In this document: positions 2,871 to 20,365 of the stretch, one piece after another
Numbering within the stretch: the first letter of the stretch is position 1
Layout of the letters: every line of letters begins with the position of its first letter
NCBI GenBank assembly: GCA_003446015.1
Contig: DMBU01000068.1
Coordinates: 27,286-91,285, forward strand
Direction of reading: 5' to 3'
From: Bacteroidales bacterium
Lineage (GTDB): Bacteria; Bacteroidota; Bacteroidia; Bacteroidales; UBA12077
Length of the DNA: 64,000 bases
Notes under the pieces: generated by a model
The model's input: only the letters and a program-made list of their open reading frames with translations
Database searches by the model: none
Told to the model about the DNA's origin: nothing
Program-made: the position numbers and the translations under genes

Positions 2871-3467
2871 TTGAAATTAAATCATATATATCCTTTAATT
2901 CAATTGAGATCACTAGATAATAAAACGATAGTTCAAGGAATTCGTAATCAGGATAAAGAAATTCTAAAAAGCATATACTCAATTTATTTCCCAACGATAA
3001 AGAGATTTATCCTTGATGCCAAAGGATCTGAGCAGGATGCAAAAGATGTATTCCAAGAAGGAATTATTATTATTTATCGAAAAATTAAAGAAGGAAACAT
3101 AAACCTTACTTCCTCGTTTAAATCATACATATATAGTGTTTGTCGATTTATTTGGATGAAACAATTATCGAAAGAAAGAGAAAATGCCGAGCAGCTTGAT
3201 GTTTATTTGGAATATGAAGAAATACCTGATGTGAGACTCGATGAGTATGAAAAAAACGAACAATACAAGCTTTATCAAAAGCATTTCTTAAGACTCGAAA
3301 AAGAATGCCAGAAGTTATTGCAATTATTTTTAAAAAATGTACCTTTAAAAGAAATCGCTGATGAATTAGGAATTGGAAGTCAGCAATATATTAAACGTAA
3401 AAAATATAAGTGTAAAGAACAACTTGTGCGGTATATTAAAAGTGATCCGAATTTTAAAGAAGAGTGA
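2871..3467 (+). CDS. Sigma-70 family (ECF-like) RNA polymerase sigma factor
   Basis: Region 2-like (DAKDVFQEGIIIIYRK...YIYSVCRFIW) and region 4-like HTH (PLKEIADELGIGSQQYIKRKKYKCKEQL). Its stop overlaps the next start (ATGA at 3464). Confidence 0.7.
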   Translation: MKLNHIYPLIQLRSLDNKTIVQGIRNQDKEILKSIYSIYFPTIKRFILDAKGSEQDAKDVFQEGIIIIYRKIKEGNINLTSSFKSYIYSVCRFIWMKQLSKERENAEQLDVYLEYEEIPDVRLDEYEKNEQYKLYQKHFLRLEKECQKLLQLFLKNVPLKEIADELGIGSQQYIKRKKYKCKEQLVRYIKSDPNFKEE

Positions 3468-4204
3468 TGGAGAATAAATTCGATTGGATTGAGAAGTATT
3501 TAATGAATGAAATGTCGGTTAGGGAACAAATAGAATTTGAAGAATCTTTAAGAACAAACCCTGATCTGATGAAAGAATTTCTACTTAGAAGGCGCATTAA
3601 CGATGCTATTACTGAGGATGATATTTTAAATTTAAGGCAAAACTTAAATCATATTATAAACCTCGAAACGGAGGAGCCTAACAAGCGACTATATATTTAT
3701 TCGGCTGTTGCAGCTATTCTGGTATTTGTTATCGTGGTATCCGGTATTTTTCTAAATAGGGAAAAGCAAGTTGAGAAAAACAGCCTTTTTGCATCTTATT
3801 ATTCTGCATATCCTGCCATGATGAGTTTTCGGTCTTTAAGCGATCAAAATGATACTACAAAGTTAATGTATGAAGCATTTAATTTTTACGATGAAAATGA
3901 ATATGATTCAGCAGCTGTTTATTTTAAAATGGTTCTGGAAAAAGATGCAACGAATACGATGAGCCAGTTTTATTTGTCGGTCTGCGAAATCGAGAATAAT
4001 AATTTGATCGAGGCTGAAGAATATTTAAGTGATCTTATTCAAAAAAAGAATCATATTTTCTGGGAACAATCAAATTGGTATTTGGCACTCGTTTATTTAA
4101 AACAAAATGAATTAGATAGTGCAGAAAGTATCTTAAATAAAGTAGTTCAAGAGAATATGACACAGAAACCTGATGCAGAAATTATTCTAAAGAAGTTGAA
4201 TTAA
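3464..4204 (+). CDS. Single-pass membrane protein with C-terminal TPR-like domain, putative anti-sigma factor
   Basis: Translationally coupled to the sigma gene. Has an N-terminal ~75-aa soluble segment, one TM (LYIYSAVAAILVFVIVVSGIFL) and TPR-like repeats. Paralog of 7480..8232. Confidence 0.55.
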   Translation: MMENKFDWIEKYLMNEMSVREQIEFEESLRTNPDLMKEFLLRRRINDAITEDDILNLRQNLNHIINLETEEPNKRLYIYSAVAAILVFVIVVSGIFLNREKQVEKNSLFASYYSAYPAMMSFRSLSDQNDTTKLMYEAFNFYDENEYDSAAVYFKMVLEKDATNTMSQFYLSVCEIENNNLIEAEEYLSDLIQKKNHIFWEQSNWYLALVYLKQNELDSAESILNKVVQENMTQKPDAEIILKKLN

Positions 4205-7201: not shown

Positions 7202-7360
7202 ATGAAAACATTAAAAAACATTTTCGGAATTGAAGAAACAAAAAAAACAATAAATAATTTTTCAGGTAAACTGGATTTACATGCAATGATTTTGATTAAA
7301 GGTGGTGATGGGGATGATGATGATTTATGGCCACCTACAATTGGATCTGGTACAAACTAA
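7202..7360 (+). CDS. Unannotated 52-aa double-glycine-leader peptide (MKTLKNIFGIEETKKTINNFSGKLDLHAMILIKGG|DGDDDDLWPPTIGSGTN)
   Basis: Hand-translated ATG..TAA ORF. The MK-LKN start and IKGG end resemble the leaders at 12272, 12570 and 12971. A hairpin plus T-run follows. Confidence 0.6.
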   Translation: MKTLKNIFGIEETKKTINNFSGKLDLHAMILIKGGDGDDDDLWPPTIGSGTN

Positions 7361-7479: not shown

Positions 7480-8232
7480 ATGCAAACCAATTTTGAAACA
7501 ATTGAAAAATATATCGATGGCGAGCTGAAAGGAAACGAGTTACTCAAATTTGAGGAATTGCTTTCAATCGATCCCGATATAAAGCGCGATTATAAGTTGA
7601 GTTTGGAACTTAACAACTCCATCATGGAAGATGATGTTATAGCGCTAAGAGAAACAATGAACTACATGTACCAGGATGAAACAATTGTTAAAAGAATTCC
7701 AACGGTATTTACAAAACGAAAGTTTTATTATTATGCTGCGGCATCGGCAGCTTTACTTATTGCAACAGGTGGTTTAATGCAAAGATTATCCGGACCTGAA
7801 ATGAACAATACACGGGTATTCGAAAAGTATTATGCTCCTTATGAAGTTACGGTAACATATCGTTCTGGAAACACCGAGGTGGATCGTTTACTATTAAATG
7901 CACTGGAGCGTTACGAAGAAAAGGATTATGAATATGCCCTGGTACTTTTCGAAGAAGTTTTGGAGTCGCGGCAAAACGATATGGCTGTAAACCTATATTC
8001 AGGTATATCTTACATGGAAGAAGAAAAGTATCAAAAAGCTACAAAATCGTTTAGTAATATTATCTCCGATAAGGATAATTTATTTATTGAGCAAGCTAAC
8101 TGGTACCTGGCGATGTGCTATTTGAAAACTGAAAAAACAGATAAAGCACAAGATGTTTTAAGAGAAATTATTAATGAAGAAAGTTATTATAAAGAACAGG
8201 CAGCCAGGGTTTTAGAGGATATCGGAAATTAG
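7480..8232 (+). CDS. Single-pass membrane TPR protein, paralog of 3464..4204 (anti-sigma-like or LytTR-inhibitor-like)
   Basis: Same architecture and alignable N- and C-terminal blocks (IEKYIDGEL...; NWYLAMCYLK vs NWYLALVYLK). No sigma gene lies next to it. Confidence 0.5.
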   Translation: MQTNFETIEKYIDGELKGNELLKFEELLSIDPDIKRDYKLSLELNNSIMEDDVIALRETMNYMYQDETIVKRIPTVFTKRKFYYYAAASAALLIATGGLMQRLSGPEMNNTRVFEKYYAPYEVTVTYRSGNTEVDRLLLNALERYEEKDYEYALVLFEEVLESRQNDMAVNLYSGISYMEEEKYQKATKSFSNIISDKDNLFIEQANWYLAMCYLKTEKTDKAQDVLREIINEESYYKEQAARVLEDIGN

Positions 8233-8263: not shown

Positions 8264-9022
8264 ATGATGAAAGATAAGGTTAAAACCATAACTGACAATA
8301 CCATGAAAGATAACTGGAAAAAACACAATACTGAGAAAATTAGTTTTTTATCGCATATTTCTCATGGTATCCGAACTCCATTAAACTCCATCATGGGTTT
8401 TTCAAAATTGCTCACGTTAAGAGATCTTGTGGACAAAAAGCAAAAGGAATATGTTCAGGGAATTCTAAACGGAAGCAATTTATTACTTCAGTTTGTTGAT
8501 AATGTGATGGATTTATCTCAATTTGAAGCAAACAATTATTCGTTAAGAATAAAGGACTGCGATATAAATCAGGTAATATGGGAATTTACAGAAGATTTTT
8601 ACAATCAAAAGATTGAAAATAGAGATACCAACATAAATCTTGTGCTAGTGTGGGAAAGTGATGTTAAAGACCTGGTGGTTGAAACAGATGCTCTATTACT
8701 GAAAAAAGCCTTACAAAGAATTGTTAATCTTGTTTCTACAAAATATCCTATTTCAGAGTTTGAGTTAGGCTATCGAATTCTCGAAAATAAATCTTTGTGC
8801 ATTTATGTTCGACCAGCAAAAGAAAAATTAACGGAAGAAGATTTATTAATCGATCAACAGTTTTATTCAATTGATGATTACAATTCATTTGAATATTTTA
8901 ATTATAAAGTTCTTTATAGCGCAGTATTAATGTTAAGAGGCGAACTAACATTAAATTCCGAAAATCAGGAATTTTCTTTTATTATTCCTACGAAATATGA
9001 CATGAACAATATATTAATCTAA
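8264..9022 (+). CDS. HisKA (H-box) protein without sensor, TM or recognisable ATP-binding G-boxes
   Basis: H-box FLSHISHGIRTPLNSIMGF near the N-terminus. The C-terminal half lacks DxGxG/GxGxG motifs. No hydrophobic segment. Confidence 0.6.
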   Translation: MMKDKVKTITDNTMKDNWKKHNTEKISFLSHISHGIRTPLNSIMGFSKLLTLRDLVDKKQKEYVQGILNGSNLLLQFVDNVMDLSQFEANNYSLRIKDCDINQVIWEFTEDFYNQKIENRDTNINLVLVWESDVKDLVVETDALLLKKALQRIVNLVSTKYPISEFELGYRILENKSLCIYVRPAKEKLTEEDLLIDQQFYSIDDYNSFEYFNYKVLYSAVLMLRGELTLNSENQEFSFIIPTKYDMNNILI

Positions 9023-9037
9023 TTAAAATAAATAATT

Positions 9038-9391
9038 ATGAGTACATATAACATATACGTTCCCACCGAAAAAGGTAAAATGAAGATAGATTGTAGTCAG
9101 ATTTTGTATATTGAATCAAGTCTGCAATTTACCAGAATAACATTTGTAAATAATGAGAACCTTGAGCTATTGTTAACGATGAGCGAAACAGAACATTTGC
9201 TTTTTAATCAGGGTTTCTTCCGTTTTAACAATAAGTATCTGGTTAATCTTAAATATGTTGAGGTTGTATTTCCATCCGATGCTTCAAAAGTTGTATTAGA
9301 AAACGGGAAGGAAATATTTGTTAACCACAACAAAAAGGAGGAATTGTTTGAAAGTTTGCGTCAGGTTTATGATCTGCAAGAATTAGCATAG
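9038..9391 (+). CDS. Stand-alone LytTR DNA-binding domain protein (no receiver domain)
   Basis: 117 aa. LytTR-like core FFRFNNKYLVNLKYV. Confidence 0.65.
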   Translation: MSTYNIYVPTEKGKMKIDCSQILYIESSLQFTRITFVNNENLELLLTMSETEHLLFNQGFFRFNNKYLVNLKYVEVVFPSDASKVVLENGKEIFVNHNKKEELFESLRQVYDLQELA

Positions 9392-9490: not shown

Positions 9491-9826
9491 ATGGAAAATG
9501 TTGCAATTCATATAAACAGGCCCAAAACCAGCGATCTTAAAGAAGTTGTATTTTTAGAATCCATAGGAGGATTTACAAGAAAATATTGCAATAATGGAAG
9601 AGAATTTTTAGTTGAAAATGATTTACATAAACTAGAGGAAAGCCTACCTAAAGAAAAATTCTTTAAAATAAACGATTCGTTTATTATAAATGCCGACTAT
9701 TTAAAACGAATAAAAGTTCGGGCAATAAAAAATGTTTTATTACTAGGAGGAATAGAATTAAACATTGCTCAGGACAGATACTGGGAACTGGTTAAGTTTC
9801 TGAAATTTAAATATAATGTTTGGTAA
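9491..9826 (+). CDS. Stand-alone LytTR DNA-binding domain protein (no receiver domain)
   Basis: 111 aa. FFKINDSFIINADYLKRI. Clear paralog of 9885..10235. Confidence 0.7.
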   Translation: MENVAIHINRPKTSDLKEVVFLESIGGFTRKYCNNGREFLVENDLHKLEESLPKEKFFKINDSFIINADYLKRIKVRAIKNVLLLGGIELNIAQDRYWELVKFLKFKYNVW

Positions 9827-9884: not shown

Positions 9885-10235
9885 ATGACGAAAAAGGCTA
9901 TTCTATTTAATGATAATGATAATTCGTTACTAGTAAAAAAACTTGACGAGATTGTTTATATGGAATCTTTCGGATGCAAGACCAAAACTTGTTTTTGCGA
10001 TGGGAAGGAACTTTTAATTAAAAAATATTTAAGTCAGGTTGAAGAATCTTTACCAAGTGAGAATTTTTTTAAAGTACATAAGTCGTTTATTATTAATATT
10101 AAATATCTCAAAGGGATTAATGTCAATACAAAGAAATCTGTTTTATTGAATGATGGGATCGAAATTAAAATCTCACATAGAAAATATAAAGATTTTATGG
10201 AATTCGTAAAAAATCGTTTTGTTATCTGGCAGTAA
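9885..10235 (+). CDS. Stand-alone LytTR DNA-binding domain protein (no receiver domain)
   Basis: 116 aa. FFKVHKSFIINIKYLKGI. Confidence 0.7.
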   Translation: MTKKAILFNDNDNSLLVKKLDEIVYMESFGCKTKTCFCDGKELLIKKYLSQVEESLPSENFFKVHKSFIINIKYLKGINVNTKKSVLLNDGIEIKISHRKYKDFMEFVKNRFVIWQ

Positions 10236-10255: not shown

Positions 10256-10295
10256 AAAGACCTAACAAGTTTAAAAATTTGTTAGGTCTTTTTTT
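10256..10295 (+). terminator. Strong rho-independent terminator ending the regulatory gene run
   Basis: Perfect 13-bp stem AAAGACCTAACAA / TTGTTAGGTCTTT with a 10-nt loop and a T-run. Confidence 0.8.
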
Positions 10296-10547: not shown

Positions 10548-12164
10548 GTGAAAAATACTTCTATTTTTTTATTAAAAAAGCTTCTTAAAGCCTACACGAT
10601 TAAATTAGATGAAAAGGAGCTGGAATTTCAGCTATTAAGTCATCCTTCGTTTCCAAGTTTGCATTCTTTGACTGGCGTTCTTGACCATTTTAAAATAGAA
10701 AATGTTGCTCTGGAAGTTCCAAATAATTTGGAAACCCTAAGCCAAATGCCTAAAGTTTTTATTGCATATATAAAAAAGGGAAAAAGTGATGATTTGGTAT
10801 TGGCCACAATTGCCGACTCTCAGGTTACACTTATCTATAACGATAAAATTAGAGAAGTTTTATCATTAAATCAATTTTGTGAAATTTGGTCCGGGATTTT
10901 TATAGCCATTGAAAAAGATAATGAAGTAATTTCAAAATCAAAAGTAAGCCTAAAAGGTTTAAGAGCCTTACCTGTATTACTTACATTACTTGCGCTAATT
11001 ACGTTATTTTTTACTTTTAAACCAGGGTTGTTTCAATCAATTCATTTCTTACTTTCGTTTATCGGATTTGGGGTAAGTATAATAATAGTAAAACATGAAT
11101 TAGGACTTTATTCAAGGATTGCAGATAAAGTTTGCTCAGGAAATTACAAGAAAATTAATTGTGATGAGGTACTTAAATCAAAGGCAGCGTCATTCTTAGG
11201 ATTTATTAAATTAAGTGATATTGGAATTGTCTATTTTATTTCAATGATTTTATCATGGATGCTTATTATTATAAGTGGAGCCAGCAATACAACAATAATT
11301 TTAATTACTATACTGGCACTGCCGTTTACACTATATTCTGTTTCATATCAATATTTTATAGTAAAAAAATGGTGTGTGCTATGTTTAAGTATTGTTTTAA
11401 TACTGTGGTTACAAGCATTCTCATTGTATTATAGTGATTTTAAATTTAATCAGGTTATACTTAGCCCAATTAGTTTGAAGTTAATTGTAGTTAGTGTACT
11501 ATTTTCAATTGTTGCCTGGCAATTTATTTTACCTAGACTAAAAAAAGAGCAGGCTTTTGTTAAGCTTAAAATAGAACATTTTAAGTTTAAACGGAACTTT
11601 AGCTTGTTTAAAGCACTGCAATCAGTAATAAATCCAATAAATACAACTATAAATGGTATACAGGAAATTCAATTTGGCAATAACCCAAAATTCCTTCATG
11701 TAATAATAATTACAAACCCATTGTGTGGGTACTGCAGGGAAACTCATGCTTTAGTTGAAAAATTACTGGAAAGAACAGGTGTCGAGTTGCAGGTTACAAT
11801 AAGATTTAATGTAAGTCTAAAAGAAGAATCTATAGATACCTCAATAGCACATAAACTTTTCGAAACATATAATGCAAAAGGGGAGAAAGAGTGTTTAAAC
11901 GCGATGCACGATATTTATGGTAAACTAAACCCAACGGACTGGTTCAAGAAATGGGGAGAACCTTCAAGTCATCAATATATAGAGTCATTAAGTAAGCAGA
12001 AACAGTGGTGTGTTAAATCAAATATAAATTTCACCCCCGAAATTTTAGTAAATGACAAAGCATTTCCAAAGGAATATGAGCGGTTGGATTTACTATATTT
12101 CTTAGACGATATTATTGAAGATGTTAGGGAGGAAACATTGGTTTTAATTAAGGAAGAAGTATAG
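10548..12164 (+). CDS. Fusion protein: degenerate C39-like N-domain, VKOR (vitamin K epoxide reductase) membrane domain and thioredoxin/DsbA-like domain
   Basis: N-terminal ~130 aa resemble a C39 domain but lack the Cys and His. VKOR loop cysteines CSGNYKKINC and membrane CXXC (WCVLC). C-terminal thioredoxin-type CGYC. GTG start taken from the ORF track. Confidence 0.7.
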   Translation: MKNTSIFLLKKLLKAYTIKLDEKELEFQLLSHPSFPSLHSLTGVLDHFKIENVALEVPNNLETLSQMPKVFIAYIKKGKSDDLVLATIADSQVTLIYNDKIREVLSLNQFCEIWSGIFIAIEKDNEVISKSKVSLKGLRALPVLLTLLALITLFFTFKPGLFQSIHFLLSFIGFGVSIIIVKHELGLYSRIADKVCSGNYKKINCDEVLKSKAASFLGFIKLSDIGIVYFISMILSWMLIIISGASNTTIILITILALPFTLYSVSYQYFIVKKWCVLCLSIVLILWLQAFSLYYSDFKFNQVILSPISLKLIVVSVLFSIVAWQFILPRLKKEQAFVKLKIEHFKFKRNFSLFKALQSVINPINTTINGIQEIQFGNNPKFLHVIIITNPLCGYCRETHALVEKLLERTGVELQVTIRFNVSLKEESIDTSIAHKLFETYNAKGEKECLNAMHDIYGKLNPTDWFKKWGEPSSHQYIESLSKQKQWCVKSNINFTPEILVNDKAFPKEYERLDLLYFLDDIIEDVREETLVLIKEEV

Positions 12165-12271: not shown

Positions 12272-12418
12272 ATGAAAAATTTAAAAAATTTAAAAGGAGC
12301 TAAGAAGCTTAGCAAAATGGAGCAAAAAGCGATTAAAGGAGGCTATGCCTGCAGAGAACCCGAAATGTGGTGCCCTCCAGGAAGTTGTTGTGTAAATGGT
12401 CTTTGCAGGCTTTGTTAG
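12272..12418 (+). CDS. GG-leader precursor peptide A1 (MKNLKNLKGAKKLSKMEQKAIKGG|YACREPEMWCPPGSCCVNGLCRLC)
   Basis: In-frame internal start of ORF 12224..12418, chosen by paralog alignment. 24-aa leader ending in GG. 6-Cys core. Confidence 0.8.
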   Translation: MKNLKNLKGAKKLSKMEQKAIKGGYACREPEMWCPPGSCCVNGLCRLC

Positions 12419-12569: not shown

Positions 12570-12743
12570 ATGAAAGATTTAAAAAATTTAAAGGGTGCTA
12601 AAAAGCTTAGCAAAAATGAACAACGATCTATTAAGGGAGGGATTGACATATGTGATATATACGGACATGATTGTCCTGAAGGTTATGTGTGTCAATGGAG
12701 AAACAGAACTACGGGTTGGTGCATACCTTATATTGAAGATTAG
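12570..12743 (+). CDS. GG-leader precursor peptide A2 (MKDLKNLKGAKKLSKNEQRSIKGG|IDICDIYGHDCPEGYVCQWRNRTTGWCIPYIED)
   Basis: Hand-translated, below the ORF-track size cutoff. Leader nearly identical to A1. 4-Cys core. Confidence 0.8.
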   Translation: MKDLKNLKGAKKLSKNEQRSIKGGIDICDIYGHDCPEGYVCQWRNRTTGWCIPYIED

Positions 12744-12970: not shown

Positions 12971-13141
12971 ATGATGAAAGATTTAAAAAATTTAAAAGGC
13001 GCTAAGGTACTTAGCAAAAATGAGCAAAAAGTAATAAAAGGTGGATATGAGAAATGTGGGTTACATCCTGATCTAGGAACACTATGCCATGTAGGTTTTT
13101 GTTGTGTAGGCAGCGCTTGTTTGCCTTGTATGGAACCGTAG
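12971..13141 (+). CDS. GG-leader precursor peptide A3 (MMKDLKNLKGAKVLSKNEQKVIKGG|YEKCGLHPDLGTLCHVGFCCVGSACLPCMEP)
   Basis: Hand-translated. Leader homologous to A1 and A2. 6-Cys core with the same C-C-CC-C-C order as A1. The start could be the second ATG at 12974. Confidence 0.8.
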   Translation: MMKDLKNLKGAKVLSKNEQKVIKGGYEKCGLHPDLGTLCHVGFCCVGSACLPCMEP

Positions 13142-13478: not shown

Positions 13479-13640
13479 ATGAAAAACAAAAAAAGATCAG
13501 ACTATTCATTATTATTTGATAATGAAAAAGCAATGTCTAAAGATGAACTGAATTTAACTAAAGGAGGTAGTGCATGTAATAATTTTCCAGTATTTGCAGG
13601 ACCCGTTTTCATGGGTTGGGCATATATTGGTCTCGGTTAA
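13479..13640 (+). CDS. GG-leader precursor peptide B1 (MKNKKRSDYSLLFDNEKAMSKDELNLTKGG|SACNNFPVFAGPVFMGWAYIGLG)
   Basis: Hand-translated. 30-aa leader of a second class ending in KGG. Hydrophobic core with 1 Cys. Confidence 0.7.
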   Translation: MKNKKRSDYSLLFDNEKAMSKDELNLTKGGSACNNFPVFAGPVFMGWAYIGLG

Positions 13641-13682
13641 CAACAATAAAAAATAATTAAACATTATCTAAATAAAAATAAA

Positions 13683-13856
13683 ATGAAAAAAGATAACAAA
13701 AACAGTTTTGAGTTAATCTTTGAGCAAAAAGATTTAATGAATAAAAATCAGATGAATGTTTTAAAGGGTGGAGCCCCATCTGGTTGTGTGGATATAAATA
13801 TTGGTTTCATTGCTTGTACAAATTTATGTATTGGTAAAGCACAGTATCCAGAATAA
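13683..13856 (+). CDS. GG-leader precursor peptide B2 (MKKDNKNSFELIFEQKDLMNKNQMNVLKGG|APSGCVDINIGFIACTNLCIGKAQYPE)
   Basis: Hand-translated. Leader alignable to B1 (S-(D/F)-(Y/E)-(S/L)-(L/I)-(L/I)-F...KGG). 3-Cys core. Lies 42 nt after B1. Confidence 0.7.
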   Translation: MKKDNKNSFELIFEQKDLMNKNQMNVLKGGAPSGCVDINIGFIACTNLCIGKAQYPE

Positions 13857-13892
13857 TTAAGGATAGAAGAATAATAGGTCCTTTTCGTTACA

Positions 13893-13923
13893 AAGAAAGT
13901 TACAAAAATGTTGTAACTTTCTT
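13893..13923 (+). terminator. Strong hairpin terminator after the precursor array
   Basis: Perfect 13-bp stem AAGAAAGTTACAA / TTGTAACTTTCTT with a 5-nt loop. Confidence 0.7.
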
Positions 13924-14145
13924 ATTTAAATGAGTAATATCATGAGTAGCTTGCAATTATAAATTATCAAATTACCTGAATATTTATACTAAAGAATAAA
14001 GTAGGATTGTTAAATTAAATTTAGCATCATAAAACACTCATATCAGTATTAGCACCTAGTTAATAAATTCTAATGATTAAATGCTTGTAGTAGAAATAGT
14101 TAAATAAATAATAAAGTAATATAGAAGAATTTAGAAAAATCTAAA

Positions 14146-15498
14146 ATGAATAATTATATGAATGAATACAAGAACTCCTCCCTTTTTTTTAATCCACATG
14201 GGGATATTATTAAAAATCAAGAAAAGAATCAGGTTGCATTAATAAATCCATTACTAAATACTTGGATTAAGATTAGTTGTAATGCATATGAAATGATTGA
14301 AAAGCTTACAAGTTCAAGTATAAATGGGTTAATTGAAAAGCAAGAAATAGATGAAGATTCTAAAGATGATTTTGTAAAATTGGTTAATTATTTAATCAGT
14401 AATAAATATCTATTGACAAAGTTTGAATATGATGTATTTAAAAATGTAAATATCTTAGAAGGCTATCAGGAAATGGTAAAATCAGTATTGCCAGAAATGT
14501 CTAAAAGACTATATTTAAGCCTTACTTCATCTTGTAATCTAAAATGTATTCATTGCTATAACACTGTAAAAAAGCCTAGTGAATATTTGGGTGAAGAAGA
14601 TCAAATTATTTATGATATTTTAGAAAAATTGAAGGATAATTATTTTTATGAGATTATCCTTACTGGAGGAGAACCATTTCTTAGAAAAGATATTTTTGAA
14701 ATCATAGAACAAACGATTGAAATTAGTAAAGAAGTTACAATAAATACAAATAGTTTATTATTAAATAAACAAAAAATAGAAAGATTAAAGAAGTATAAAA
14801 ATCTTACAATAGCTGTAAGTTTGGATGGTTTAACAAAAGCAACGCATGAAAACATTCGAGGTGTAAATACATTCGAGAAAACATTAGCAAATATTAATGC
14901 ACTAATTAAAAATGGGATTAAAACACATATTATTGCAACAGTTACAAAAAAGAGTTATAAAGAATTAGTAGGATTTGATGATTTTATTAAAGAATTAAGA
15001 ACTACTGGTAATTTAAGTTTTTTTACTCCTGTAGGAAAGGGCAAGGAATCGATTGATAATCTGATTATGGATAATAACGAACTTCAAGAATATTCAAATT
15101 TATTATTTGAAAAGCATAAAGATAAATTTGCAGATCAATTTGAAAAAGATAAAAATCATTCAATTCCAATTAAATTTAATTGTTCTGCTGGAATTGGTAT
15201 TTTAGGAATTGAACATACGGGAAGAGTTGTGCCATGTCATTTATTTCTCGGGAAAGATATTTCTCTTGGAAATATTTTGAGCGAATCGTTAGTAGACATG
15301 CAATTAAAGTGGTTAAAAAATGGAATTTTATCGGTTGATAGTAATTCTGAATGCAAAGATTGCTCAATAAGACATTTTTGTGGTAATGGTTGTTTAGCAA
15401 ATACTTATTACAATAATGGAACATTTAATGGAAAGGACCCTAATTGCCTCATCCATAAAATAGGAATACAGAGTAAAATATGGTATTGTGAAAATTAA
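14146..15498 (+). CDS. Radical SAM/SPASM-domain peptide maturase with N-terminal RRE-like extension
   Basis: CNLKCIHC (CX3CX2C). Cys-rich C-terminal SPASM-type region (CSAG...PCH ; CKDCSIRHFCGNGC...NC). About 120 aa precede the rSAM core. Confidence 0.8.
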   Translation: MNNYMNEYKNSSLFFNPHGDIIKNQEKNQVALINPLLNTWIKISCNAYEMIEKLTSSSINGLIEKQEIDEDSKDDFVKLVNYLISNKYLLTKFEYDVFKNVNILEGYQEMVKSVLPEMSKRLYLSLTSSCNLKCIHCYNTVKKPSEYLGEEDQIIYDILEKLKDNYFYEIILTGGEPFLRKDIFEIIEQTIEISKEVTINTNSLLLNKQKIERLKKYKNLTIAVSLDGLTKATHENIRGVNTFEKTLANINALIKNGIKTHIIATVTKKSYKELVGFDDFIKELRTTGNLSFFTPVGKGKESIDNLIMDNNELQEYSNLLFEKHKDKFADQFEKDKNHSIPIKFNCSAGIGILGIEHTGRVVPCHLFLGKDISLGNILSESLVDMQLKWLKNGILSVDSNSECKDCSIRHFCGNGCLANTYYNNGTFNGKDPNCLIHKIGIQSKIWYCEN

Positions 15499-15523
15499 TC
15501 TTTGTTTAATTAATTTAAAAATA

Positions 15524-16171
15524 ATGGATTTAAAGTTTTTTAAGAAGAACCTGATTGACTACTTATTTCTACCATTTTTAATTATTTCATTTTATTTGTA
15601 TTTAAATGAAAACAGACAAGGACTATTTGGGTATTATGTGATAATATTTGCTGTTTTAGTAGTCCTTAAATTCTCAAAGGAAGGATTTATAAATCTTTGT
15701 AGTTTATCTCTGGGTCAGGAACATAAAAAGATTTCTTTTGTTTCTTTTATGCTTTTAATCGTATCTTCAATTATTACATCTAATATTATATCATTTATCA
15801 TTCAAAGCAAATTTTTAAACGAGCATTATACAACAAAAAATTATTTTGATTATAATTTTTTGTATGTGTTTTTTATTTTTAATACTGTTCGCATATTTGG
15901 TGAAGAACTAATATTTCGAGGCTTTCTATTAATTGAGGATATTAGGATGAATAAAAGCGTATTTTGGTGGTTAAATCTCTTACAGGCTATTATGTTTAGT
16001 TTGATACATAGTTTTTTTGTGGAAGAACTGTCAAGTAAACTTGTTTTTACAAGCTACGTATTTTTATTCTCAATTTTTGCGGGTTGGATAAATAAGAAAT
16101 ATAATAGTTTACTCCCCAGTTGGATAATTCATTGGGCTAATGGGATTCTGAACTTTCTATATGTATTTTAG
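15524..16171 (+). CDS. CPBP-family intramembrane glutamic endopeptidase (CAAX protease / bacteriocin self-immunity type)
   Basis: EELIFRGF, FSLIH and IIHWANG motifs in a polytopic membrane protein. The alternative GTG start at 15488 overlaps the rSAM gene. Confidence 0.75.
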   Translation: MDLKFFKKNLIDYLFLPFLIISFYLYLNENRQGLFGYYVIIFAVLVVLKFSKEGFINLCSLSLGQEHKKISFVSFMLLIVSSIITSNIISFIIQSKFLNEHYTTKNYFDYNFLYVFFIFNTVRIFGEELIFRGFLLIEDIRMNKSVFWWLNLLQAIMFSLIHSFFVEELSSKLVFTSYVFLFSIFAGWINKKYNSLLPSWIIHWANGILNFLYVF

Positions 16172-16301: not shown

Positions 16302-18518
16302 ATGTCTTTCCCAAATTATAAACAACTCGATGCCATGGATTGCGGTCCAACCTGTTTAAGGATGATTGCAAAGCACTATGGCAAATCTTATTCATTACAA
16401 AACCTTCGTGATAAGAGCTACATTACCCGAGAGGGTGTTTCAATGCTTGGCATCAGTGATGCTGCTGAAGCAATTGGTTTTCGTAGTATGGGTGTTCGTA
16501 TTACGTTCGATCAACTCGTGAACGAAGCTCCACTGCCATGTGTGGCACATTGGAATCAAAATCATTTTGTTGTTGTATACAAGATTAAGAAAATCTCCCC
16601 AAACCCGTTTCGAAAAGGTGGAGTATTTGTTTATGTTTCTGACCCTGCTCGAGGGTTAATAAAATTTACTAAGGAAGAATTTGAAAATGCTTGGGCAAAT
16701 ACAAAAGAAGACGGAGAGGAAAAGGGCCTTTGCCTTTTACTTGAACCAACACCAGATTTTTACAAGGCCGATGACGAGAAGTTGAATAAATCCGGATTTA
16801 AGTTTTTGTTTTCTTATTTACGACCATATAAAAAGATTATAGTTCAATTATTCCTTGGACTGTTGTTAGGGAGTTTACTACAACTTATTTTTCCATTTTT
16901 AACACAGAGTATTGTCGATAAGGGTATTAATAATCAAAATCTCGATTTTGTTACATTAATCATCATAGCTCAATTAGTTTTAATATTTTCAAGAACTATA
17001 GTAGAATTCATTCGTAGTTGGATATTGTTGCACCTTGGAACAAGAATAAACATTTCTTTAATTTCTGATTTTTTAATCAAGTTAATGAAACTGCCGGTTT
17101 CATTTTTCGATACTAAAATGATTGGTGATATCATTCAGCGTATTGGCGATCATAAAAGAATAGAAAGCTTTTTAACTTCATCTACCTTAAATATTTTATT
17201 CTCCTTTATAAATCTTATCATCTTTGGTATTGTATTATTGTATTATAGTATAAACATTTTCTTAATATTTCTTGCAGGAAGTTTTCTCTATACTGCATGG
17301 GTTTACCTATTCATGAAAAAGCGACGCGATCTGGATAATCGTCGGTTTGCCCAAATGTCAAGTAATCAAAGCAATGTAATTCAGTTAATAACCGGAATGC
17401 AGGAAATTAAGCTGAATAATTGCGAAAAACAAAAGCGCTGGGAGTGGGAGAATATTCAGGCCCGATTATTTAAAGTGAATATGGCAAGTTTATCCTTAAG
17501 TCAGTATCAGCAGGCTGGAGGAGTTCTAATCAACGAAGTAAAAAATGTAGCTATAACTTTTATTGCTGCAAAATCAGTAATCGATGGCAATATGACATTG
17601 GGTATGATGTTGGCGGTTCAATATATTATTGGTCAGTTAAACAGCCCAATCAATCAAATGATTACTTTTTTACAATCAACACAGGATGCAAAAATAAGTT
17701 TGGAACGACTGGGTGAAATTCATCAAAAGGAAAATGAAGAATCTGATGAAGAACCAAAAATTGATATCTTACCTGAACATAGGGAGTTAAATCTTAATAA
17801 CATATTTTTTCAGTATGAAGGTCCTCACTCACCTTTTGTATTAGATGATGTAAATTTGAATATCCCCGAAAAGAAAATAACAGCCATTGTAGGGACCAGC
17901 GGAAGCGGAAAAACAACATTAATTAAGTTATTGTTAGGGTTTTATAATCCAACCAAAGGAAAAATAAATCTGGGCGATCTGTATTTGAATAATGTAAGTA
18001 ATAGAATGTGGCGCGATAAATGTGGAGTTGTAATGCAGGATGGATTTATATTTTCTGATTCAATTGCAAATAACATCTCGGTTATGGATGAATTTCCTGA
18101 CAGAGAAAGACTTTTACATGCTGTTAAAGTGGCCAATATTCAGGAATTTATTGAGTCATTGCCTTTAGGATACAATACTAAAATAGGACAAAATGGAGTA
18201 GGCTTGAGTCAGGGTCAAAAGCAGCGTATTTTAATAGCACGTGCCGTGTATAAAAATCCTGAGTTTATATTTCTTGATGAAGCTACCAATGCACTTGATG
18301 CCAACAATGAGAGGACCATCATGGAAAACCTTGATCAGTTTTTTAAAGGAAAAACAGTAGTTATTGTTGCACATCGATTAAGTACTGTTAAAAATGCCGA
18401 TCAGATTGTAGTATTGGAAAAAGGGAAAATTGTAGAATTAGGTACACATACTGAATTAGCTAAAAAGAAGGGAGTGTATTATGAGTTGGTTAAGAATCAG
18501 TTGGAGTTGGGTTCTTAA
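16302..18518 (+). CDS. Peptidase C39 domain-containing bacteriocin/peptide-cleavage-export ABC transporter
   Basis: N-terminal C39 with catalytic Cys (MDCGPTCLRM) and His (HWNQNHFVVV). 6-TM domain. Walker A GTSGSGKTT, signature LSQGQKQR, Walker B IFLDEAT. Confidence 0.9.
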   Translation: MSFPNYKQLDAMDCGPTCLRMIAKHYGKSYSLQNLRDKSYITREGVSMLGISDAAEAIGFRSMGVRITFDQLVNEAPLPCVAHWNQNHFVVVYKIKKISPNPFRKGGVFVYVSDPARGLIKFTKEEFENAWANTKEDGEEKGLCLLLEPTPDFYKADDEKLNKSGFKFLFSYLRPYKKIIVQLFLGLLLGSLLQLIFPFLTQSIVDKGINNQNLDFVTLIIIAQLVLIFSRTIVEFIRSWILLHLGTRINISLISDFLIKLMKLPVSFFDTKMIGDIIQRIGDHKRIESFLTSSTLNILFSFINLIIFGIVLLYYSINIFLIFLAGSFLYTAWVYLFMKKRRDLDNRRFAQMSSNQSNVIQLITGMQEIKLNNCEKQKRWEWENIQARLFKVNMASLSLSQYQQAGGVLINEVKNVAITFIAAKSVIDGNMTLGMMLAVQYIIGQLNSPINQMITFLQSTQDAKISLERLGEIHQKENEESDEEPKIDILPEHRELNLNNIFFQYEGPHSPFVLDDVNLNIPEKKITAIVGTSGSGKTTLIKLLLGFYNPTKGKINLGDLYLNNVSNRMWRDKCGVVMQDGFIFSDSIANNISVMDEFPDRERLLHAVKVANIQEFIESLPLGYNTKIGQNGVGLSQGQKQRILIARAVYKNPEFIFLDEATNALDANNERTIMENLDQFFKGKTVVIVAHRLSTVKNADQIVVLEKGKIVELGTHTELAKKKGVYYELVKNQLELGS

Positions 18519-18530
18519 TGGAAAAGTTTG

Positions 18531-18558
18531 CAGTTTGCAGTTTGCAGTCGGCAGTTTA
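18531..18558. repeat. Tandem heptamers CAGTTTG x2, CAGTCGG, CAGTTTA
   Basis: Read directly. About 6/7 complementary to the downstream CCAACTG units. Confidence 0.85.
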
Positions 18559-18609
18559 TACTAAATTTTAAATGATCGAATCAATAATATTAAAATTATT
18601 TACAGCATT

Positions 18610-18984
18610 ATGGGTGATTTCAGAGATTTAAAGGTTTATAAATTATCATATAAACTAGCAATGGAGATTTTTCATATAACTAAAAAATTTCCAAAAGAAG
18701 AAAGGTATTCCTTAACCGATCAGATTAGAAGGTCTTCACGTTCTGTAACTACAAACATCTCTGAATCATATCGGAAAAGAAGATATCCAAAACATTTTAT
18801 AAGTAAATTAAGTGATTCTGATGCTGAATTGGCTGAAACTCTTACTTGGTTAGACTTTTCGAAAGATTGTGAATACATTAATTATGAAGAACATACGTAT
18901 TTTATAAATGAGTATGAAGAGGTTGGAAAGATGTTAGGAAGTATGATAAATAAGCCAGAAAGATTTATAATAACAAATGGTTAA
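18610..18984 (+). CDS. Four-helix-bundle protein (23S rRNA intervening-sequence protein family)
   Basis: FRDLKVYKLSYKLAMEIFHITKKFPKEERYSLTDQIRRSSRSVTTNISE and the length are typical of this family. Confidence 0.8.
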   Translation: MGDFRDLKVYKLSYKLAMEIFHITKKFPKEERYSLTDQIRRSSRSVTTNISESYRKRRYPKHFISKLSDSDAELAETLTWLDFSKDCEYINYEEHTYFINEYEEVGKMLGSMINKPERFIITNG

Positions 18985-18987
18985 CAA

Positions 18988-19036
18988 CCAACTGCCAACT
19001 GCCAACTGCCAACTGCCAACTGCCAACTGTAAACTG
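18988..19036. repeat. Tandem heptamers CCAACTG x6 plus one degenerate unit (TAAACTG)
   Basis: Read directly. Translates as the artefactual QLPTANCQLPTANC at the 5' end of ORF 18977..20365. Confidence 0.9.
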
Positions 19037-19042
19037 AGCATT

Positions 19043-20365
19043 ATGAAAGAAAAACAAGAGTTCGAAAAAATAGAATTACGAAGCAACGAAGTACAAGAGA
19101 TCCTCACACGTCCTCCAAAATGGATTGTACGATGGGGAATAACAATGATCTTTGTGGTTATTATTGTTATTTTAACTGGTAGTTGGTTTTTTCAATACCC
19201 AGATATTGTTTCGGCTCAAATCGTTTTAACAACGGAGAACCCACCGGCTCCTGTTTTAGCAAAAACATCAGGGAAAATTCAAAAGCTACTTGTCTCAAAT
19301 GATGATGTAGTTGCTAAATATCAAGATTTAGGTGTTATCGAAAACCCTGGAAGTTTTGAATCAATTGTTAATCTATTAAAACAATTGGAATATTTTAAAG
19401 CAAATTTTAAACCAGGAGAGATTTTTAGTTTATCAAATCAATCTTATATTCTTGGTGATATCCAGTCAAGTTATGCCAGTTTTTATGCAAATGTTGAAGA
19501 GTACAACAAGTCGATCAAATTAAATTATCATAGACAAAAGCTGGATTTATATAAAAAGGAGCTAAAAAAATATGATAATTATTTAGCTAATATTATAACT
19601 CAAAACACAATTCTCCAGGAAGAACTTAATTTAACAAAGAAGCAGTATAACAGAGATTCTGTTTTATTTTCCAAAAATTTATTATCGGAATCTGATTTTG
19701 ACAAATCGAAGTCAGCTTTACTTTCTAAATTTTATAATTACGAGCAAAATAATGTAACTATTTCAAATGTTGAAATTCAGATTGAAAGTTTAAATCAAAG
19801 CATTCTCGAACTTGAGTTACAGCAAGAAAAACAAATTTCTGATCAAACTTCGCTTATTTGGGAATCGTACGAGAATCTCTTAGCAGCAATTAATTCATGG
19901 AAACACAACTATGTTTTAATTGCCCCAACTGATGGAATAGTAGGTTTTAATAAATTTTGGAATGAAAACCAATCGGTTAAAGCCGGGGAAACTGTAATGA
20001 CAATTATTCCAAGAGATGAGGGGAAATTAATAGGGAAAGTACAGTTAACCTTTCAAGGTGCGGGTAAAGTTAAAGAAGGTCAGAAGGTAAATATACAGTT
20101 TTCAAATTATCCATATATGGAATTTGGAATGGTTAGAGGTATCGTGAAATCTATTTCTCTTGCTCCCGATAATAATTATTATACTGCTGAAATTCAATTA
20201 CCCAATGGCTTAAAGACCTTTTACGGGATTGATCTGAATTTTAAACAAGAGATGCAAGGTACGGCCGAAATTATTACTGAAGATATGCGCTTATTGGAAA
20301 GAATCGTGAGGCCCCTCCAATTTATTTTAAATAAAAATACTAAGTTTGGGGATCACAACAATTAA
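19043..20365 (+). CDS. HlyD-family membrane fusion/secretion protein (partner of the C39-ABC exporter)
   Basis: Start moved to MKEKQEF, downstream of the repeat array. N-terminal TM, long coiled-coil region and a C-terminal beta-barrel-like region. Confidence 0.8.
   Translation: MKEKQEFEKIELRSNEVQEILTRPPKWIVRWGITMIFVVIIVILTGSWFFQYPDIVSAQIVLTTENPPAPVLAKTSGKIQKLLVSNDDVVAKYQDLGVIENPGSFESIVNLLKQLEYFKANFKPGEIFSLSNQSYILGDIQSSYASFYANVEEYNKSIKLNYHRQKLDLYKKELKKYDNYLANIITQNTILQEELNLTKKQYNRDSVLFSKNLLSESDFDKSKSALLSKFYNYEQNNVTISNVEIQIESLNQSILELELQQEKQISDQTSLIWESYENLLAAINSWKHNYVLIAPTDGIVGFNKFWNENQSVKAGETVMTIIPRDEGKLIGKVQLTFQGAGKVKEGQKVNIQFSNYPYMEFGMVRGIVKSISLAPDNNYYTAEIQLPNGLKTFYGIDLNFKQEMQGTAEIITEDMRLLERIVRPLQFILNKNTKFGDHNN

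Follow-up and report, generated by a model that had tools for sequence, protein, structure and literature searches.

A C39-like/VKOR/DsbA-like fusion protein of Bacteroidota as a predicted cytoplasm-facing oxidase of co-encoded GG-leader peptides

Closest described systems

Disulfide formation in Bacteria is regarded as an extracytoplasmic process, and the only inward-facing VKORs known to us come from a few Crenarchaea and from engineered E. coli. Dedicated thiol-disulfide oxidoreductases accompany a GG-leader bacteriocin and its C39-ABC exporter in the case of BdbA and BdbB (sublancin 168 operon) and PedC (pediocin). These Gram-positive enzymes are not VKOR based and act outside the membrane once the peptide has been exported, and we know of no leader-recognition domain in them. 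The C39-like domain (CLD) of HlyB is a non-cleaving substrate-interaction module whose ligand is the unfolded body of a large RTX protein, not a leader. The protein that we describe here has a domain of the same papain-like C39 fold, which has likewise lost its catalytic Cys and for which the same role is putative. The HlyB CLD, however, is fused to an ABC exporter, whereas here the fusion partner is a redox enzyme and the neighboring exporter keeps an active C39 domain of its own.

The redox portion of the protein is most readily compared with the Synechococcus VKOR-Trx protein (PDB 3KP9, 4NV2/5/6) and the clostridial VKOR-DsbA fusions. All have a four-helix core, a loop Cys pair, and a membrane CxxC, followed by TM5 as a linker helix and, at the C terminus, a Trx-fold domain with a CxxC. 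An electron relay that starts at Trx and reaches quinone by way of the loop Cys and then the CxxC is expected both in canonical VKOR-Trx proteins and here. Our protein differs from the canonical proteins in having an added N-terminal C39-like domain and an added helix, TM0, so that it has six TMs instead of five, and in having a DsbA-like Trx domain with a helical insertion. Its charge bias is also reversed, implying active sites that are predicted to face inward, and we propose that it is dedicated to co-encoded peptides instead of general envelope proteins.

The closest precedent for such an orientation is ApVKORi of Aeropyrum pernix, an inward-facing archaeal VKOR (Hatahet & Ruddock 2013; Hibender et al. 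2017, cited in PMC13486548). As presented there, its catalytic Cys face the cytoplasm and enable cytoplasmic disulfides, an orientation that is only predicted for the fusion protein. Its host is a crenarchaeal hyperthermophile whose cytoplasmic proteins are generally rich in disulfides, whereas ours belongs to the Bacteroidota. For ApVKORi, PMC13486548 describes neither a peptidase-like or DsbA-like fusion nor a peptide-export context, in contrast to the three-domain, peptide-tied arrangement reported here.

Within the Bacteroidota, bacteroidetocin clusters carry a thiol oxidoreductase gene that is required for toxin activity and whose product, EH213_01843, was proposed to form the disulfides of the peptide (Coyne et al. 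2019, PMC6671954). Like the fusion gene, it adjoins genes for a GG-leader Cys peptide and a PCAT. We located the bacteroidetocin locus through a published primer and examined 8 kb of it, within which no HlyD was found. EH213_01843 is a 173-aa protein composed of a single N-terminal anchor and a Trx domain (CDLC); it gives only weak Thioredoxin_8/_2 matches and is presumably periplasmic. It has neither a VKOR nor a C39 domain, and we therefore rejected an identity between the two proteins; the bacteroidetocin enzyme is an analogous solution from a separate family.

Architecture of the fusion protein

The fusion gene lies in a 64,000-nucleotide stretch of a Bacteroidales contig (the window). It and its parts, all on the + strand, are as follows.

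10548..12164, +: C39-like/VKOR/DsbA-like fusion gene (ORF list, Pfam, homologues, family alignment, AF2)
10548..10919, +: C39-like domain, aa 1-124 (Pfam PF03412, Foldseek, hhalign, family alignments)
10953..11015, +: extra helix TM0, aa 136-156 (hydropathy peak, AF2; canonical VKOR-Trx proteins have no TM0)
11028..11432, +: VKOR four-helix core, aa 161-295 (Pfam PF07884, invariant Cys, profile alignment to 4nv6, AF2)
11466..11591, +: TM5 and Lys/Arg-rich helical extension, aa 307-348 (AF2 helix, charge count)
11625..12164, +: DsbA-like thioredoxin-fold domain, aa 360-538 (Foldseek, profile match to 1z6m, invariant residues)

The ORF encodes 538 aa from a GTG start, and homologue alignments begin at residue 1. 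Pfam, AF2, and Foldseek together resolve a C39-fold domain, a VKOR core, and a DsbA-like domain in an AF2 model (pLDDT 87.2) with six long helices in the membrane region. A homologue search retrieved 341 proteins, and we scored residue conservation on 46 homologues with 39-59% identity. Public annotation of the homologues is generic ("vitamin K epoxide reductase family protein"), no NCBIfam model matches the fusion protein, and a full-text search of the literature found no description of a C39-VKOR-Trx protein. When the single sequence was used to query the PDB, only a chance glutaredoxin match was returned; we consequently used the family profile as the query to reach VKOR and Trx matches.

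Several lines of data place the N-terminal domain in the C39 fold. Pfam Peptidase_C39 (PF03412) matches residues 9-125 (E = 7.9e-7, 29.4 bits against a cutoff of 22), and Foldseek aligns the domain with the PCAT1 peptidase (7n87; TMt 0.64, rmsd 3.2 Å over 124 columns). The best Foldseek match is the whole of PCAT1 6v9z (E = 6e-6), membrane helices included, and the list for the fusion protein also includes the HlyB/D complex 8dck. Neither ABC_membrane nor ABC_tran is matched by the fusion protein in Pfam; the C39-like domain is joined to VKOR and DsbA-like domains instead. Comparison with the C39 domains of the local PCATs by hhalign gives an E value of 1.6e-4 (probability 51%), and BLASTP against the C39 domain of the neighboring exporter is not significant (E = 4.3). 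This weak sequence similarity to active C39 domains counts against a leader-binding model.

The domain has a papain-like fold without a conserved catalytic Cys or His. Across the 46 homologues, the position of the catalytic Cys (residue 34) is variable (S/D/T/F/N/Y), while Q28, at the oxyanion Gln position six residues earlier, is invariant. The invariant His83 of the exporter aligns in hhalign with the variable Y74 (Y/H/V/F/Q/L), and neither the alignment nor hhalign places a conserved Asp in the C39-like domain opposite Asp114 of the PCATs. The invariant residues of the domain are E24, Q28, S31-H32-P33, P36-S37, H47, F110, and G116. We therefore rejected an active C39 peptidase, which fits the fold and the profile: its catalytic Cys, His, and Asp are all unconserved.

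The VKOR core is identified more directly. Pfam VKOR (PF07884) matches residues 167-291 (E = 3e-16, 60.2 bits against a cutoff of 27.5), and the AF2 helices are TM1 (161-184), TM2 (222-243), TM3 (248-272), and TM4 (277-295). Both the loop pair C196/C205 (CSGNYKKINC) and the membrane CxxC at the start of TM4, C276/C279 (WCVLC), are invariant in the 46 homologues, and the family profile aligns all four Cys with the matching Cys of Synechococcus VKOR 4nv6.

At the C terminus, Pfam Thioredoxin_4/_2/_3 matches at residues ~384-513 fall below the cutoff (18.8 against 23.2). Foldseek, however, recovers a DsbA/ScsC/BdbD-like fold (4gxz; TMt 0.73, rmsd 3.6 Å), and the family profile matches 1z6m (E = 5.9e-4). 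The CGYC (C393/C396) and the cis-Pro loop (T496-P497) are invariant in the 46 homologues, and AF2 models the helical insertion in the Trx fold as helices 429-490. The domain also has a lone, unpaired C488, invariant in the 46 homologues, which counts against an inward-facing oxidase model.

An earlier note on this DNA had read the gene from its sequence alone as a three-domain fusion, and this observation is confirmed: all three domains are recovered, with C39 and VKOR above the cutoff in the Pfam search that the note had proposed. The VKOR hallmarks that it listed and its C-terminal thioredoxin-type CGYC hold across the family, as does its reading that the catalytic Cys and His of the C39 domain are lost. 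Its claim that the N terminus resembles the C39 domain of the neighboring exporter stands at the level of profile and fold but not in pairwise BLASTP.

Co-encoded peptides and exporters

The features around the fusion gene in the window are as follows.

10256..10291, +: terminator-like hairpin with a 16-bp stem, between the upstream LytTR genes and the VKOR-fusion/peptide transcription unit
12272..12418, +: type-A GG-leader precursor 1, leader MKNLKNLKGAKKLSKMEQKAIKGG, core YACREPEMWCPPGSCCVNGLCRLC, 6 Cys (weak NCBIfam leader_Chryseo match)
12570..12743, +: type-A GG-leader precursor 2, core IDICDIYGHDCPEGYVCQWRNRTTGWCIPYIED, 4 Cys (NCBIfam leader_Chryseo, E = 6e-4)
12971..13141, +: type-A GG-leader precursor 3, core YEKCGLHPDLGTLCHVGFCCVGSACLPCMEP, 6 Cys (ORF list, NCBIfam search)
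13479..16171, +: accessory sub-cluster (ORF list, Pfam, NCBIfam)
13479-13640 and 13683-13856, +: two GG-leader peptides of the sub-cluster with a different leader and 1 and 3 Cys
14146-15498, +: rSAM/SPASM maturase of the sub-cluster
15488-16171, +: CPBP protease of the sub-cluster
16302..18518, +: PCAT exporter, active C39 peptidase plus ABC transporter (Pfam, NCBIfam)
18977..20365, +: HlyD-family membrane-fusion protein, the partner of the PCAT (Pfam HlyD_3, 4.4e-13)

The PCAT matches Pfam Peptidase_C39 (1.1e-31), ABC_membrane, and ABC_tran, as well as NCBIfam bacteriocin_ABC and NHLM_micro_ABC1, and by its sequence should remove GG leaders and export the peptides. In the local PCATs, His83 and Asp114 are invariant and Cys14 nearly so; given this intact catalytic triad, leader cleavage does not need the C39-like domain of the fusion protein. 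A heptamer repeat lies inside the annotated N terminus of HlyD, and the true start is probably near 19040. The accessory sub-cluster shares the exporter, but its peptides are unlikely to be substrates of the VKOR fusion. We rejected the rSAM/SPASM maturase as a core part of the VKOR-fusion system, as it was found in only 2 of 80 related loci.

Approximately 430 relatives of the fusion protein occur in species-representative genomes. We drew linkage counts from 80 inspected loci, every one of them from the Bacteroidota. A GG-leader pattern that demanded hydrophobic residues at both -4 and -7 was too strict, missing the window's own peptides, and we used a looser one. On the strand of the fusion gene, 73 of the 80 loci contain a total of 366 GG-leader ORFs, 354 of which encode two or more Cys; the opposite strand, which served as the control, has 29, of which 9 encode two or more Cys. 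The first peptide gene begins no more than 400 nt past the stop codon in 61 of the 80 loci. A PCAT (C39-ABC exporter) is encoded nearby on the same strand in 55, and HlyD is present in 49. The other 25 loci have no PCAT within 8 kb, which counts against an export-coupled model. Four genomes have two paralogous loci, each paralogue with its own peptide array, which argues for dedicated and not housekeeping enzymes.

The peptides themselves have a consistent organization. The type-A leader is conserved over 22-24 residues (consensus about MKxLxxLKGxKxLSKxEQKxIxGG) and nearly free of Cys (10 Cys among 8309 residues), whereas the cores are hypervariable, have 4, 6, or 8 Cys, and number up to 11 different ones per locus. 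A near-identical core to that of precursor 1 and a core related to that of precursor 2 both occur in one related locus, L002. The number of Cys is even in 323 of 354 unique cores, odd in 20, and zero in 11. Each of the 314 strict type-A leaders precedes a core that has two or more Cys, and the 12 Cys-poor candidates all carry leaders other than type A. This pairing of type-A leaders with Cys-rich cores may merely reflect common descent of the peptide family.

Predicted orientation and function

Family-averaged hydropathy gives six hydrophobic segments, the first peaking at 144-156, and no hydrophobic N-terminal signal peptide was found in it; the canonical VKOR-Trx consensus has only five TMs. 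The canonical topology, with five TMs, a cytoplasmic N terminus, and the redox sites and Trx domain outside, is thus predicted not to apply to this family, which has six TMs by hydropathy and AF2 and a reversed charge bias. With TM0 added, the VKOR core is inverted with respect to the N-terminal domain, which puts the C39-like domain on the same side of the membrane as the DsbA-like domain.

To provide an orientation for this arrangement, we calibrated the positive-inside rule on 40 canonical full-length VKOR-Trx proteins, collected by an exhaustive search that was seeded with one truncated match to the Synechococcus fragment (E <= 1e-10). In the canonical proteins, the redox side averages 2.67 K+R and the opposite side 10.97, and the latter exceeds the former in every one of the 40. 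In the fusion family (n = 46), the side with both soluble domains (C39-like and DsbA-like) and with the VKOR Cys loop and CxxC averages 13.3 K+R against 0.72 on the opposite side, with a minimum of 10 on the former and a maximum of 3 on the latter. The TM5 extension, which connects to the DsbA-like domain, contributes a family mean of 6.9 K+R in the 25 residues past TM5. The reversal is visible from the short loops alone: loops 2-3 and 4-5 average 0.17 and 0.52 K+R, respectively, against 2.75 and 2.40 in the canonical proteins, and loop 3-4 averages 2.2 against 0.28.

From this reversed charge bias and the missing signal peptide, we predict that the C39-like, VKOR, and DsbA-like modules all face the cytoplasm, where leaders are still attached. 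The VKOR would thus be inverted relative to described bacterial VKORs, a prediction that the earlier note did not foresee. Bacterial VKORs have been described as outward-facing (PMC13486548), a description that counts against the inward model. Mammalian and giant-virus VKORs have been reported to break the positive-inside rule (PMC13486548), and these violations count against the predicted inward topology. A full-text search of the literature found no description of an inward-facing bacterial VKOR.

The leader-guided oxidative folding proposed in the earlier note is supported on the predictions tested here. Three Cys-rich GG-leader precursors (6, 4, and 6 Cys) do lie directly downstream of the fusion gene, and the link to such peptides and to PCATs extends to many genomes beyond the window. 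The compartments of the C39-like and DsbA-like domains, named beforehand as a possible refutation, are predicted to be one and the same, the cytoplasm, and so compatible with a leader-bearing substrate. Oxidation "before or during export" is narrowed by the predicted orientation to cytoplasmic oxidation before export.

We judge the chances to be about even that the fusion protein serves specifically to form disulfides in the Cys-rich peptides with type-A GG leaders that are encoded beside it, acting at the cytoplasmic face of the inner membrane. On this reading it would be a dedicated quinone-linked oxidase, probably guided by the leader, that works ahead of PCAT/HlyD export. The ribosome would produce a precursor with a conserved leader of 22-24 residues and a hypervariable core with 4, 6, or 8 Cys, and the catalytically dead C39-like domain would grip the leader without cleaving it. 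The tethered DsbA-like domain would then use its CGYC to convert core Cys to disulfides, a step suggested by the fold of the domain, its invariant residues, and the predominantly even Cys counts of the cores. Re-oxidation would proceed via C196/C205 and then C276xxC279, with electrons passing to menaquinone. A relay from Trx to VKOR to quinone is the established chemistry of VKOR-Trx fusions, and all of its residues are present in the fusion protein. The folded, leader-bearing peptide would be passed to the PCAT, whose active C39 domain would cut the leader, and the PCAT, HlyD, and an outer-membrane factor would export the peptide, probably past the periplasm. From these data we infer that the enzyme faces the cytoplasm in vivo, binds leaders, and acts as an oxidase. 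The cytoplasm is reducing, however, and a DsbA-like domain there would need to outcompete the thioredoxin system, which weighs against this scenario. The complete proposal, in which this would be the first natural inward-facing bacterial VKOR, a quinone-coupled cytoplasmic oxidase whose precursors are selected by their leaders through a dead C39 domain and folded before PCAT/HlyD export, is accordingly a tentative one, to which we assign a little less than an even chance.

The same dedicated VKOR-DsbA oxidase might instead face outward, with its redox sites and C39-like domain in the periplasm and with oxidation following release from the PCAT; the C39-like domain would then bind some target other than the leader, perhaps the mature core or a region of HlyD or the PCAT that lies in the periplasm. 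Six helices fit a protein with both termini outside equally well, and such an enzyme would conform both to the periplasmic norm for oxidation and to the outward orientation described for bacterial VKORs (PMC13486548); the single N-terminal anchor and Trx domain of the bacteroidetocin thiol oxidoreductase are likewise as for a periplasmic enzyme. We nonetheless consider an outward orientation, and with it a non-leader target, unlikely. The charge bias is extreme (13.3 versus 0.7) and opposite to the canonical one (2.7 versus 11.0), and a folded N-terminal domain of ~135 aa would need to cross the membrane without a signal peptide. The cytoplasmic C39 domain of the PCAT removes the leader, leaving none for a periplasmic C39-like domain, and the HlyD-coupled export suggested by 49 of the 80 loci is expected to skip the periplasm. 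A different departure from our preferred reading keeps the enzyme inward-facing and oxidizing but makes the C39-like domain a docking or regulatory module, not a leader reader, which might tether the oxidase to PCAT/HlyD by C39 mimicry or bind unfolded cores in the manner of HlyB. The precedent of the HlyB domain, which has the unfolded substrate body, not a leader, as its ligand, is consistent with this, as is the remodeling of the active-site region to an invariant S31-H32-P33-x-x-P36-S37, in which a Gly-Gly pocket need not remain. That the best Foldseek match is whole PCAT1 with its membrane helices also fits a C39-like domain and TM0 derived from an exporter fragment. Strongly conserved leaders on hypervariable cores, however, are what one would expect of leaders read by a conserved partner; a single enzyme faces up to 11 cores per locus, which would be hard to manage by core recognition; and 25 of the 80 loci have no PCAT nearby. 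A docking or regulatory role is accordingly rather doubtful.

It is very improbable that the protein is a housekeeping substitute for DsbB/DsbA acting on envelope proteins, or confers immunity, and sits near bacteriocin-like genes by chance. VKOR proteins and VKOR-DsbA fusions do stand in for DsbB/DsbA in many bacteria (PMC12453122), and the generic public annotation would suit such a role. Immunity is disfavored by the bacteroidetocin thiol oxidoreductase, which conferred none (PMC6671954), although that is a different protein. Cys-rich GG-leader peptides adjoin the gene in 73 of the 80 loci, several genomes encode two paralogues with a peptide array each, the predicted orientation is unsuited to envelope substrates, and general oxidative folding offers the C39-like domain no role.

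The predicted cytoplasm-facing arrangement of C39-like, VKOR, and DsbA-like domains is apparently new, as none has been described for bacteria in the literature that we searched. If our cytoplasmic, leader-guided reading is correct, a widespread bacterial family that oxidizes peptides in the cytoplasm would alter the extracytoplasmic-only picture of disulfide formation. Leader-guided tailoring of peptide natural products usually depends on RRE (PqqD-like) domains, and a dead C39 peptidase that serves as the leader reader of a redox or tailoring enzyme would be a new principle. The fusion gene is a genome-mining marker for hundreds of hypervariable peptides with 4, 6, or 8 Cys, and an enzyme able to install disulfides in the cytoplasm on any core behind a short leader would be a possible tool for the production of disulfide-rich peptides. 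To our knowledge, Bacteroides, at least, is reported to have no general Dsb machinery; the proposed enzyme, if real, would account for disulfide-rich secreted peptides in the Bacteroidota, and the family would delimit a large and unstudied class of exported peptides rich in disulfides.

Architecture of the fusion family

The fusion protein (538 aa; ORF 10548-12164, +) joins a C39-like domain, a VKOR domain, and a DsbA-like domain in a single chain. Pfam matches Peptidase_C39 at residues 9-125 (E 7.9e-7; 29.4 bits against a cutoff of 22), VKOR at residues 167-291 (E 3e-16), and several thioredoxin families at ~384-513, each under its own cutoff; in an NCBIfam scan of the protein, no model matched. 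An AlphaFold2 model run with the family alignment (mean pLDDT 87.2, pTM 0.71) contains the following parts:

aa 1-121, alpha/beta N-terminal domain
aa 125-133, disordered linker
aa 136-156, 161-184, 222-243, 248-272, 277-295, and 307-348, six long helices
aa 374-537, thioredoxin fold with a helical insertion

The top Foldseek match in the PDB was PCAT1 (6v9z, E 6e-6), and the isolated PCAT1 peptidase domain (7n87) aligned with a TMt of 0.64 and an rmsd of 3.2 Å over 124 columns. The C-terminal domain matches ScsC, BdbD, and DsbA proteins (4gxz; TMt 0.73, rmsd 3.6 Å), which marks it as DsbA-like and not as a simple thioredoxin. Pfam (C39 and VKOR) and the Foldseek-searched model together confirm the three domains that the earlier note had read from the sequence.

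A word-indexed search recovered 341 relatives. Among the 120 listed, lengths range from 484 to 570 aa, every named source is a member of the Bacteroidota, and the names given are "vitamin K epoxide reductase family protein," "thioredoxin domain-containing protein," "Peptidase C39 domain-containing protein," "hypothetical protein," and "uncharacterized membrane protein," with some entries unnamed. In an alignment of 46 members (39-59% identity), the VKOR loop pair C196/C205, the membrane C276xxC279, the thioredoxin C393xxC396, the cis-Pro loop T496-P497, and E24, Q28, P33, P36, H47, F110, and G116 of the N-terminal domain are all invariant. A seventh invariant cysteine, C488 (W487-C488; 12009-12011), stands without a conserved partner in the DsbA-like domain, whereas the thioredoxin domain of canonical VKOR-Trx proteins carries an extra conserved cysteine pair. 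C488 could act as a relay, could act as a resolving cysteine, or could just be tolerated because its domain would lie in a reducing compartment.

Q28 is the counterpart of the C39 oxyanion glutamine, but the expected catalytic cysteine site six residues further on is variable across the 46 members. When the domain was aligned profile to profile with active C39 domains from 21 exporters encoded nearby (E 1.6e-4, probability 51%), their invariant His83 was matched to the variable Y74, so the proposed loss of both catalytic residues is borne out. The likeness to the neighboring exporter, noticed earlier by eye, holds at the level of profile and fold only: BLASTP of the C39-like domain against that exporter gave no significant match. 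Because the local PCATs, the C39-bearing ABC exporters, retain the catalytic triad (Cys nearly invariant, His and Asp invariant), leader cleavage can do without the C39-like domain.

Linkage to cysteine-rich peptides

A one-genome-per-species scan found ~430 relatives. The best 80 of these loci all lie in Bacteroidota, with Bacteroidales MAGs, Marinifilaceae, and many Flavobacteriaceae (Tenacibaculum, Aquimarina, Lutibacter, Lacinutrix) among the hosts.

Table. Gene content of the best 80 loci
PCAT nearby, same strand: 55/80
HlyD-family protein: 49/80
rSAM enzyme: 2/80
GG-leader small ORFs, same strand: 366, in 73 loci; at least 2 core Cys in 354
GG-leader small ORFs, opposite strand (control): 29; at least 2 Cys in 9
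First peptide gene starting no more than 400 nt from the stop codon: 61/80

Conserved leader positions are L-12 (94%), Q-7 (85%), K-14 (79%), K-10 (78%), and -4, where Ile stands in 71% and either Ile or Val in 94%; the leaders are almost devoid of cysteine. The cores are hypervariable, with a mean length of 38 aa and 13% Cys. The number of cysteines is even in 323 of 354 unique cores, odd in 20, and zero in 11; 164 cores have four, 127 six, and 25 eight. Each of the 314 strict type-A leaders is followed by a core with two or more cysteines; the 12 Cys-poor candidates all have non-type-A leaders. Four genomes each carry two paralogous fusion-gene loci (L005/L010, L003/L042, L014/L047, and L033/L059), with a separate Cys-rich peptide set for each copy wherever peptide candidates were listed.

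The window's cluster is arranged as follows, with housekeeping genes beyond:

5' of the hairpin, three LytTR genes
10256-10291, terminator-like hairpin
10548-12164 (+), fusion gene
directly after it, three type-A precursors with 6, 4, and 6 Cys, the GG-leader neighbors that the earlier note had described
13479-16171 (+), accessory block: two differently led peptides, rSAM/SPASM maturase, CPBP protease
then PCAT, a small inserted gene, and HlyD, in that order

The accessory-block peptides, directly 5' of the rSAM/SPASM maturase and CPBP intramembrane protease, have non-type-A leaders and 1 and 3 Cys, the second with a weak TIGR04149 match; they are apparently a second class using the same PCAT. 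The inserted gene (region 18525-19036) is 23S_rRNA_IVP/bAvd-like (18610-18984) and has a tandem repeat of a heptamer on either side, AGTTTGC x4.7 (18525-18557) and CCAACTG x6 (18988-19029). Since the latter encodes the odd "QLPTANCQLPTANC" N terminus of the longest HlyD ORF, HlyD probably starts at the Met near 19040.

A further GG-leader peptide, at 7202-7360 (+), lacks cysteine and combines an acidic core with a DLWPP-like motif (…KGG followed by DGDDDDLWPPTIGSGTN); it is grouped with genes at 3464-4204, 7480-8232, 8264-9022, 9038-9391, 9491-9826, and 9885-10235. At two related loci (L002, 4911-5265; L004, 4278-4445) it recurs 5' of the fusion gene, and its neighbors each time are TPR proteins, an orphan HisKA protein, and stand-alone LytTR DNA-binding proteins, one to three in number. 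This looks like an exported peptide-signal/regulator module controlling the cluster, akin to Gram-positive bacteriocin quorum sensing. A 933-aa CHAT-domain protein with many TPR repeats (4182-6983, -) sits between two TPR/anti-sigma-like genes.

Predicted membrane orientation

Canonical bacterial VKOR-Trx enzymes have five transmembrane segments, a cytoplasmic N terminus, and periplasmic redox sites. The fusion family has six hydrophobic segments. The additional segment, TM0 (136-156), falls after the C39-like domain and before VKOR TM1; with it, the VKOR cysteines and both soluble domains, C39-like and DsbA-like, must share one side of the membrane. We counted K+R in loops and 15-residue flanks across the family and, identically, in a control of 40 canonical full-length VKOR-Trx sequences, relatives of the crystallized Synechococcus enzyme recovered by exhaustive search.

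Table. Mean K+R in the fusion family (n=46) and in canonical VKOR-Trx (n=40)
Redox-site side: 13.3 (minimum 10); canonical, 2.67
Side opposite redox sites: 0.72 (maximum 3); canonical, 10.97
Loop 2-3: 0.17; canonical, 2.75
Loop 4-5: 0.52; canonical, 2.40
Loop 3-4 (before CxxC): 2.2; canonical, 0.28

K+R is higher on the cytoplasmic side in 40/40 canonical sequences, and the reversal is visible from the short loops by themselves. No hydrophobic signal was found in the N-terminal 135 residues, the first hydropathy peak falling at 144-156, and translocation of a folded ~135-residue domain without such a signal is unlikely. Given this charge bias opposite to the control and the lack of an N-terminal signal, we strongly predict from sequence that the fusion protein has its N terminus inside and all its functional modules on the cytoplasmic side, which would make it an inverted VKOR. 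As to which way the C39-like and thioredoxin domains face, a check that the earlier note had proposed, the six-segment layout thus gives the same side and the charge prediction the cytoplasm. According to a 2026 paper (PMC13486548), the only known inward-facing VKORs belong to a small number of Crenarchaea, Aeropyrum pernix among them. Mammalian and viral VKORs are reported to violate the positive-inside rule (PMC13486548), so the orientation is a strong prediction, not a fact.

A proposed cytoplasmic, substrate-tethered relay

The model with the best support is a relay that is tethered to its substrate and works on the cytoplasmic face. The dead C39 domain would hold the leader while the CGYC of the DsbA-like domain oxidizes the core; electrons would pass to menaquinone through the VKOR loop pair and CxxC, and the oxidized, leader-bearing peptide would go to the PCAT, to be cut at GG and exported with HlyD.

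An outward-facing enzyme with a periplasmic C39-like domain would agree with the way other bacterial VKORs are reported to face, but it is contradicted by the family's charge bias, by the missing signal peptide, and by a periplasm without leaders. If the enzyme does face inward, its C39-like domain could possibly dock on the exporter or bind the core instead; conservation of the leader beside hypervariable cores favors leader reading. A housekeeping Dsb or immunity role is unlikely given the tight peptide linkage, and the paralogue pairs argue against housekeeping in particular.

The bacteroidetocin thiol oxidoreductase, which is required for toxin activity (PMC6671954), offers a comparison. 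A published primer recovered an 8-kb locus (L081; uncultured Bacteroides sp. contig CAQOGY010000008.1) whose positions 2975-6593 (-) hold a complete bacteroidetocin B-type four-gene cluster:

221-aa TM protein
57-aa precursor (15-aa leader, 42-aa core, 4 Cys)
173-aa Trx protein
707-aa PCAT

No HlyD was found within these 8 kb, although the PCAT is present. The thiol oxidoreductase is the 173-aa single-anchor Trx protein, presumably periplasmic; we therefore rejected the fusion protein as a member of its family, the two being analogous in purpose but of different families.

VKOR-Trx/VKOR-DsbA fusions, inactive C39-like domains, bacteriocin-cluster thiol oxidoreductases, and crenarchaeal inward-facing VKORs are each already known, but their combination here is new: a full-text literature search turned up no account of the fusion architecture, of any inward-facing VKOR in bacteria, or of a tailoring enzyme targeted by a C39 fold. 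The interest of the family lies in its size and in central claims that are open to direct test. If HlyD-coupled export bypasses the periplasm, as we infer, the cytoplasm would be the sole site where the enzyme meets the peptide together with its leader, which would account for both the inversion of the VKOR and the attached leader-binding fold.
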